Below, piece by piece: positions 21,030-22,612 of a stretch of DNA of 43,765 nt (positions are counted from its first letter, which is position 1; every line of letters starts with the position of its first letter). The translations under genes were made by a program, and so were the position numbers. The stretch lies in IMG/VR virus record IMGVR_UViG_2917865565_000001, positions 1 to 43,765 of that record; one strand, given 5' to 3'. The notes under the pieces were generated by a model, which was given only the letters and a program-made list of their open reading frames with translations, was not told the DNA's origin and did not search any database. Origin of the DNA: a virus (Duplodnaviria; Heunggongvirae; Uroviricota; Caudoviricetes).

Positions 21030-22612
21030 TCTTCTCCTCCTCTGTTGATTGTCGCAGCCCGGATTCAAATGCTGCAGCCGCCCAGGCGGGCGGTTTAAGA
21101 CCAGCCGCGCGGCGCTCCATCGTTTCACGGACCTGCTGGGCAAAAATTTCCTGATAGTCGTCGCCGCGTTTTGCGCACTCTTTCTCGTAGGTGCTCAGTC
21201 CGGCTTCTATCAGCATCACCGCTTCCTGTACTTCTTTCAGACCATCGATGGCCATACGACCGGAGCCTATCCAGTCGCAGTTCCCCCAGGCACTGCGGGC
21301 TTCCTGAAAACTGAAGCGCGCTTTTGAAGGTAACGTCACCACGCGGCGAACGATGGCCTCTTCCAGCCAGCACAGAAACATCTGGCTCGCCTGACGGGAT
21401 GCGACGAATTTTCGCCGCCCCATAAAGTGCGCCCACGACTCGTTCGCGCTGGCCCGTGCCGTGGAGTAGCTCATCTGGGCGTAATTCCGGGAAAGCTGCT
21501 CATACGAGACACCCAGCCCGGCTGCGATATACCGCAGCAGTGACTGCTCAAAAACGGAGTAGCCGTTATCCGTGTCCTGAGCCGTCTGCAGGTTCAGTGA
21601 GTCACCCGGCATCAGGTGTGGCACTTTTGCGCCTCCCAGCCGGACCGGCGCGGCGGCGTAATACGCGGCAATTTCACCAATCCAGCCGGTCAGCCTTTCC
21701 CGCTGCTCCTGACTGTTCGCGCCCAGAATAAAATCCATCGCTGACTGCGTATCCAGCTCACTTTCAATGGTGGCGGCATACATCGCCTTCACAATGGCGC
21801 TCTGCAGCTGCGTGTTCTGCAGCGTGTCGAGCATCTTCATCTGCTCCATCACGCTGTAAAACACATTTGCACCGCGAGTCTGCCCGTCCTCCACGGGTTC
21901 AAAAACGTGAATGAACGAGGCGCGCCCGCCGGGTAACTCACGGGGTATCCATGTCCATTTCTGCGGCATCCAGCCAGGATACCCGTCCTCGCTGACGTAA
22001 TATCCCAGCGCCGCGCCGCTGTCATTAATCTGCACACCGGCACGGCAGTTCCGGCTGTCGCCGGTATTGTTCGGGTTGCTGATGCGCTTCGGGCTGACCA
22101 TCCGGAACTGTGTCCGGAACAGCCGCGACGAACTGGTATCCCAGGTGGCCTGAACGAACAGTTCACCGTTAAAGGCGTGCATGGCCACACCTTCCCGAAT
22201 CATCATGGTAAACGTGCGTTTTCGCTCAACGTCAATGCAGCAGCAGTCATCCTCGGCAAACTCTTTCCATGCCGCTTCAACCTCGCGGGAAAAGGCACGG
22301 GCTTCTTCCTCCCCGATGCCCAGATAGCGCCAGCTTGGGCGATGACTGAGCCGGAAAAAAAGACCCGACGATATGATCCTGATGCAGCTGGATGGCGTTG
22401 GCGGCATAGCCGTTATTGCGTACCAGATCGTCTGCGCGGGCATTGCCACGGGTAAAGTTGGGCAGCAGGGCTGCATCCACACTTTCACTCGGTGGGTTCC
22501 ACGCCCGCAACTGCCCACCAAATCCGCTGCCACCGCCGTGATAACCGGCATATTCACGCAGCGATGTCATGCCGTCCGGCCCCAGAAGGGTGGGAATGGT
22601 GGACATTTTCAT
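21010..22612 (-). pseudogene. B: portal protein B, interrupted by a 1-nt change in a homopolymer
   Basis: N-terminal 85 aa and remaining 448 aa lie in different frames; junction at A7 run (plus 22355..22361) where intact reading GSFFRLSH needs 6. Confidence 0.8.

Follow-up and report, generated by a model that had tools for sequence, protein, structure and literature searches.

The analysed window is a 43,765-nucleotide stretch of viral DNA (Caudoviricetes; IMG/VR record IMGVR_UViG_2917865565_000001), in which lambda-type head genes occupy the minus strand. The gene order Nu1-A-W-B-C-D-E is collinear with that of lambda, and the portal gene B lies between W (head-tail joining) and C (protease/scaffold), downstream of the terminase genes Nu1 and A. 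The features at this locus are as follows:

24712-25257, minus strand: Nu1, a head gene in lambda order
22812-24737, minus strand: terminase gene A, a head gene in lambda order
22609-22815, minus strand: W, a head gene in lambda order, adjoining the portal gene
21010-22612, minus strand: lambda-type portal gene B, 1603 nt as assembled against the expected 1602, present as two ORFs
22355-22361, minus strand: homopolymer run, A7 on the plus strand and T7 on the portal coding strand; its canonical length is 6, and the extra base causes the frame switch

As given, the window contains no single portal ORF of about 533 aa, only two ORFs of 111 aa and 515 aa. The upstream ORF (22277-22612, minus strand, 111 aa) follows lambda gpB as far as ...HQDHIVGSFF and then runs off-frame to a stop codon, and the other (21010-22557, minus strand, 515 aa) contains ...FFRLSHRPSWRY... 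and continues to the gpB C-terminus. Each fragment matches the Pfam family PF05136 (Phage_portal_2), at profile positions 2-68 and 55-354 of 354 with scores of 56.7 and 260.2 bits (cut-off 32.9), and jointly they cover positions 2-354. On the plus strand, positions 22350-22364 read CCGGAAAAAAAGACC; the A run extends exactly from 22355 to 22361, flanked by ...GCCGG and GACCC.... The letters of the window and the list of ORFs thus bear out a preliminary description of this DNA, according to which an A7 run divides the portal between two frames. That description counted 85 N-terminal residues before the switch; there are actually 86 in the native frame, and the switch point itself is ambiguous because residues 85-86 (FF) are encoded inside the run. 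With six Ts, the codons of the run in the portal coding strand are GGG TCT TTT TTC (Gly-Ser-Phe-Phe).

Removal of one A in silico yields a single 533-aa portal ORF with 530 of 533 residues identical to lambda gpB, and this corrected protein is identical to the portal encoded on a contig assembled from a second data set, SRR8835204. Both the assignment of the gene as lambda B, which rests on the PF05136 matches and this identity, and the earlier statement that the intact reading needs six bases are therefore sound; lambda itself (J02459) has six. The protein gpB is essential, and no virions are formed without the portal, so the consequence named for a genuine lesion, loss of virion assembly, is correct by established lambda biology. 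The comparison with lambda B that the preliminary description had called for gives six bases at this site in lambda J02459 and in the phage PhiR49_1_star. The record of the latter (PV340569.1, L002) shows one-base differences from the window in terminase A (23029), the tape-measure gene H (14621) and lom (6013), with H and lom each annotated as two CDSs and an over-long A CDS (655 aa against 641), and it may have indel problems too.

The portal locus is common among relatives, and the long run is not. With a 2001-nt query, all 30 phage matches and all 40 E. coli genome matches listed span 2000 nt. Six Ts and an uninterrupted portal ORF were found in lambda, in 88 phage records and in all fetched relatives except one annotated pseudogene, and all 16 fetched loci from other genomes have T6, leaving aside E. 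coli PNUSAE014970 (L003) with T7. No exact match to an 81-mer with the A7 allele was present among 3213 E. coli complete-genome records; at this identity band, T7 with at least two SNPs is indistinguishable from T6 with one SNP, and the count of one other T7 genome is a lower bound. An exact 40-mer of the allele had no matches in GTDB representative genomes, which shows only its rarity. A frame-split portal is thus not conserved among the homologues examined.

The exception, the portal gene N4555_RS23700 of PNUSAE014970 (NZ_CP104639.1, L003 1287-2889), shows the same T6 to T7 change in the same codons and is annotated as "frameshifted" by PGAP. It differs from the window portal in carrying another nearby SNP (C to T, 25 nt upstream of the run), and for this reason its T7 would have arisen independently, either by real slippage or through another sequencing error. 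Its presence suggests that the portal run is a recurrent trouble spot.

The surrounding prophage is mosaic, with a lambda-like head and proximal tail and an early region closest to P22/HK-type modules (Rad52-like, SSB, anti-RecBCD and DnaB-like helicase). It is integrated with the thrS-infC-rpmI-rplT-pheST cluster on one side and, on the other, a tyrosine integrase that adjoins yniD-like, DUF481 and pfkB genes. Two tRNA genes, tRNA-Thr(TGT) and tRNA-Asn(GTT), lie at 27814-27969 on the minus strand, flanked by the antiterminator gene Q and the lysis genes.

The integrity of this prophage was analysed by tblastn of the window with 25 structural proteins from a related intact prophage (E. coli JNE21-009, L004). 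Of these, 22 are full length in one frame, and three change frame: B, J (near 8541-8544) and stf (near 4670-4689). With a P-loop NTPase gene that is frameshifted twice, four genes of the window are broken, and every lesion is a 1-nt homopolymer change. In the early region, every gene that has a counterpart in E. coli MS 16-3 is unbroken, and the analysis showed no nonsense codons, IS elements or large deletions. Apart from the portal run, the one-base differences from canonical run length are located as follows:

8549-8550, minus strand: CC against CCC in the tail-tip gene J (6559-9956), which is split into ORFs of 497 aa (8463-9956) and 638 aa (6559-8475)
4668-4675, minus strand: T8 against T7 in the side tail fibre gene stf, which is split into ORFs of 394 aa (4649-5833) and 397 aa (3448-4641)
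38-45, plus strand: A8 against A7, first frameshift of the P-loop (KAP) NTPase gene; the Logan contig L017 of SRR6148323 also has A7
588-594, plus strand: A7 against A6, second frameshift of the same NTPase gene
2068-2074, plus strand: A7 against A6, a non-coding run downstream of the NTPase gene
36616-36623, plus strand: T8 against T7, an early-region run by a small ORF; for the adjacent gene, the source assembly has a call of 68 aa and the second assembly one of 82 aa
36642-36647, plus strand: A6 against A5, an early-region run
42382-42389, plus strand: A8 against A7, an early-region run near the integrase end

The CCC in J is kept in five relatives and in the second data set; among the differences, this lesion alone is a deletion, and in contrast to the A/T over-calls it falls in a short G/C run. 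The stf run is T7 or TCTTTTT in relatives, and a 792-aa intact gene is present in assembly GCA_005781075.1. The second data set and E. coli KK05-19 both carry the NTPase gene (window 1-1666, plus strand, at the tail-fibre end of the prophage) as an intact gene of 580 aa. Its first run is A6 in E. coli A3, where the annotation likewise has the gene as two pieces, showing that the run length varies between public assemblies.

The window is 100% identical to contig PDIJ01000010.1 of assembly GCA_004745205.1 (loci L012, L014 and L030), the record of which has no protein called for B, J or stf. [quoted passage not shown] The letters thus come from a platform that is prone to errors in homopolymer length: the indel errors of Ion Torrent are mostly linked to homopolymers, and difficulty with a 7-bp run has been documented (PMC3902414).

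The same prophage with its flanks is present in GCA_005781075.1 (L015 and L031) and in Logan assemblies of SRR8835204 (L013, L016 and L032), which we refer to together as the second data set. Base-by-base comparison gave the following:

Window 5237-24915 against L013 (19.7 kb): 0 substitutions; A6 at the portal run and CCC in J
Window 1-13157 against L015 and L016: 0 substitutions; the window is one base longer at 38-45, 588-594, 2068-2074 and 4668-4675 and has the J deletion
Window 34239-43765 against L031: 0 substitutions; the window is one base longer at 36616-36623, 36642-36647 and 42382-42389
Host DNA outside the window: 0 substitutions; three more T runs are one base longer, two of them in the rplT-pheS interval and the third close to a fructosamine-kinase-like gene

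On the source contig, the host T runs are located at L014 17296 and 17383 (rplT-pheS leader region) and at L030 20502 (near the fructosamine-kinase-like gene); in the leader region, only the second assembly has a 44-aa gene call. The comparison covered 34.4 kb of the window, on both sides of 24,915-34,239, and approximately 12.4 kb of adjoining host DNA. Over this total of about 46.9 kb there were 0 substitutions and 12 one-base homopolymer differences, 11 of them additions to A/T runs of the source assembly and one a C3 to C2 deletion in J. At all 12 sites the second data set has the canonical length, and the affected genes (B, J, stf and the NTPase) are in frame there: the SRR8835204 contig L013 encodes a portal of 533 aa and a J protein of 1132 aa, and L015 and L016 carry unbroken genes for J, stf (792 aa) and the NTPase (580 aa). 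The seventh A is thus gone in independently sequenced DNA from what may be a clonal sister isolate, the compared 19.7 kb showing 0 substitutions. A read set with a 6-nt run, named in the preliminary description as the finding that would speak against a lesion, is effectively at hand, since the contig has A6 in an otherwise matching 19.7 kb, the CCC in J aside. SRR8835204 and GCA_005781075.1 could represent a clonal sister isolate and not the same strain as E2562, and for that reason a real mutation private to E2562 keeps a small probability.

The differences share a common signature. Over-calling climbs with the true length of the run, from 1 of 76 A/T runs of five bases to 3 of 24 runs of six and 4 of 10 runs of seven, whereas none of the 28 G/C runs of five or more bases was over-called. 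Each of the 11 A/T changes adds a base, which has P ~0.0005 under equal odds of insertion and deletion. Among the 12 A/T runs of at least seven bases with a reference in the window, five exceed essentially every reference by one base and none falls short. The added bases occur in coding, host and non-coding DNA, and homopolymer indels amount to about 1 per 4 kb in the checked regions of the draft.

The exact frameshift products of B and J were found elsewhere only in Logan contigs of SRR6148323, which is probably the read set behind the window, judging from an accession range that fits the 2017 submission. One of these contigs (L010) is 100% identical to window positions 21346-26951, A7 included. 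Another (L011, SRR6148323_538) has 0 substitutions and three extra one-base deletions at window-equivalent positions 5681, 10859 and 11611; these sit in 2-nt runs and would break stf, K and L, all of which are intact at those positions in the window. Such deletions are direct evidence that this read set is indel-prone. A third contig (L017) has canonical lengths at 45, 594 and 2074, against the window, again with 0 substitutions. Thus two assemblies of what is probably one read set differ only at indels, a pattern of ambiguous homopolymer calls. If SRR6148323 does hold the source reads, the A7 over-call was systematic in the reads and not just an assembler choice. Because L010 also has A7, the SRR6148323 data alone do not separate an over-call from a true A7.

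We conclude that the seventh A at 22355-22361 is very likely an Ion Torrent base-calling or assembly error that survived into the consensus, and not a mutation; the platform, the A6 in an otherwise matching copy, the +1 signature across the window and its dependence on run length all favour this reading. In Ion Torrent sequencing, a homopolymer gives one flow signal whose size is converted to run length, a step that often goes wrong for long runs. A/T runs of 5-7 bases would accordingly have been called one base long repeatedly in the E2562 assembly, and the portal T6 would have been read as T7, which would put the remainder of gene B out of frame. We infer that reads at the portal site itself were miscalled in this manner. 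The real prophage most likely encodes an intact 533-aa portal of the gpB type and likewise intact J, stf and P-loop NTPase proteins. The preliminary description had left the choice between lesion and artefact open, under a title that leaned towards a real interruption; its artefact part stands, and the lean does not, as the evidence strongly favours an artefact.

There is a small chance that a real +1 slippage in E2562 changed T6 to T7 and inactivated the portal, leaving a defective prophage that could be induced and lyse its host but would be headless. Homopolymer slippage is a common route to pseudogenes, the deposited sequence and a second assembler (Logan, SRR6148323) agree on A7, the complete genome of PNUSAE014970 has an annotated "frameshifted" T7 at the same place, and the apparent breaks in J and stf would likewise fit a prophage in decay. 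However, the clonal copy, which differs by 0 substitutions along some 47 kb, has A6 and unbroken B, J, stf and NTPase genes, and the same +1 A/T signature, scaling with run length, extends into host and non-coding DNA, so that the portal change would be the sole genuine one among eleven like A/T changes. Moreover, 12 indels in 47 kb correspond to roughly 1,200 per genome without substitutions, which is implausible for a living strain, the platform was Ion Torrent, and no other type of decay is present. A decaying prophage was therefore rejected: the clonal copy lacks the portal lesion and is otherwise intact, and the window shows no lesion types other than 1-nt homopolymer changes. Were A7 real, for which we see a slim chance, it would represent a very recent portal knockout in an otherwise pristine lambda-like prophage, perhaps partly rescued by rare +1 slippage, ribosomal or transcriptional, on U7; the run would then be a recurrent mutational hotspot, because it is also found in E. 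coli PNUSAE014970.

It is extremely improbable that T7 is a recoding or phase-variable site, acting through low-level +1 ribosomal frameshifting, transcriptional slippage on U7/T7 or a reversible switch between 6 and 7 bases controlling virion production. The sequence U UUU UUU C would let tRNA-Phe re-pair in the +1 frame to give the native GSFFRL, and slippage of RNA polymerase on A/T runs is an established phenomenon. Nevertheless, such a site should be conserved and is not, as the fetched relatives, one annotated pseudogene aside, have T6 and an uninterrupted ORF; the operon's real programmed site, GGGAAAG in the G/T overlap, is conserved in the expected place; and the over-call reading covers all eleven over-called A/T runs together. 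Programmed frameshifting, transcriptional slippage and phase variation were rejected on the lack of conservation of the run. That E2562 is a mismatch-repair-deficient mutator with many real homopolymer indels, the portal one included, is hardly credible: such E. coli strains have strongly raised ±1 indel rates at mononucleotide runs, and all the indels here do fall in runs, but a mutator would also gain many transitions and its genome-wide load would strike many essential genes, whereas we found 0 substitutions against 12 indels over about 47 kb and insertions at 11 of 11 A/T changes (P ~0.0005), and at 3 of these sites the assembly is contradicted by contigs of its probable source reads; the substitution count and the one-directional change led us to reject it.

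The split itself is biologically unimportant, since the prophage most likely has a normal lambda-type portal. Its relevance is to the use of the draft. Extrapolated from the checked 47 kb, the E2562 assembly may hold of the order of a thousand such indels. Confirmation is needed before any apparent pseudogene in this draft, and probably also in the 15 sister assemblies of the project, is taken as gene loss, prophage decay or recoding; in the window, this caution covers the portal B, tail-tip J, stf and P-loop NTPase genes. Frameshift scans should begin by checking for a homopolymer signature across the assembly.

The corrected gene is a typical representative of the lambda gpB portal family, and the split belongs to a known class of flow-sequencing errors and presents nothing novel. 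The head and proximal tail block of the window (13968-25446) has 97.7% DNA identity to lambda, and the portal shares with lambda gpB (J02459 CDS 2836-4437; PF05136) the W-B-C gene order and 530 of 533 residues. It differs in that the run TCTTTTTTC reads TCTTTTTTTC in the deposited sequence and so splits the gene, and in that the host is Escherichia cryptic clade II and not E. coli K-12. A true change of frame is known from the same late operon, the programmed -1 frameshift of lambda G/G-T, whose GGGAAAG is located at 15341-15347 on the minus strand of the window. This G/T site is conserved across relatives and yields two functional products, whereas the portal T7 is unconserved and has no known function. 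Compared with lambda, gene G (15323-15736) lacks 9 nt in frame (137 aa instead of 140), a deletion that is real because the second data set shares it. Miscalls of flow-based platforms (Ion Torrent, 454) are one-base indels in mononucleotide runs that are more frequent in longer runs and absent from independent data, as observed here. Unlike generic miscalls of this type, the consensus errors of the E2562 assembly are one-sided, with 11 A/T insertions, 0 of 28 G/C runs affected and a single deletion in a C3 run.
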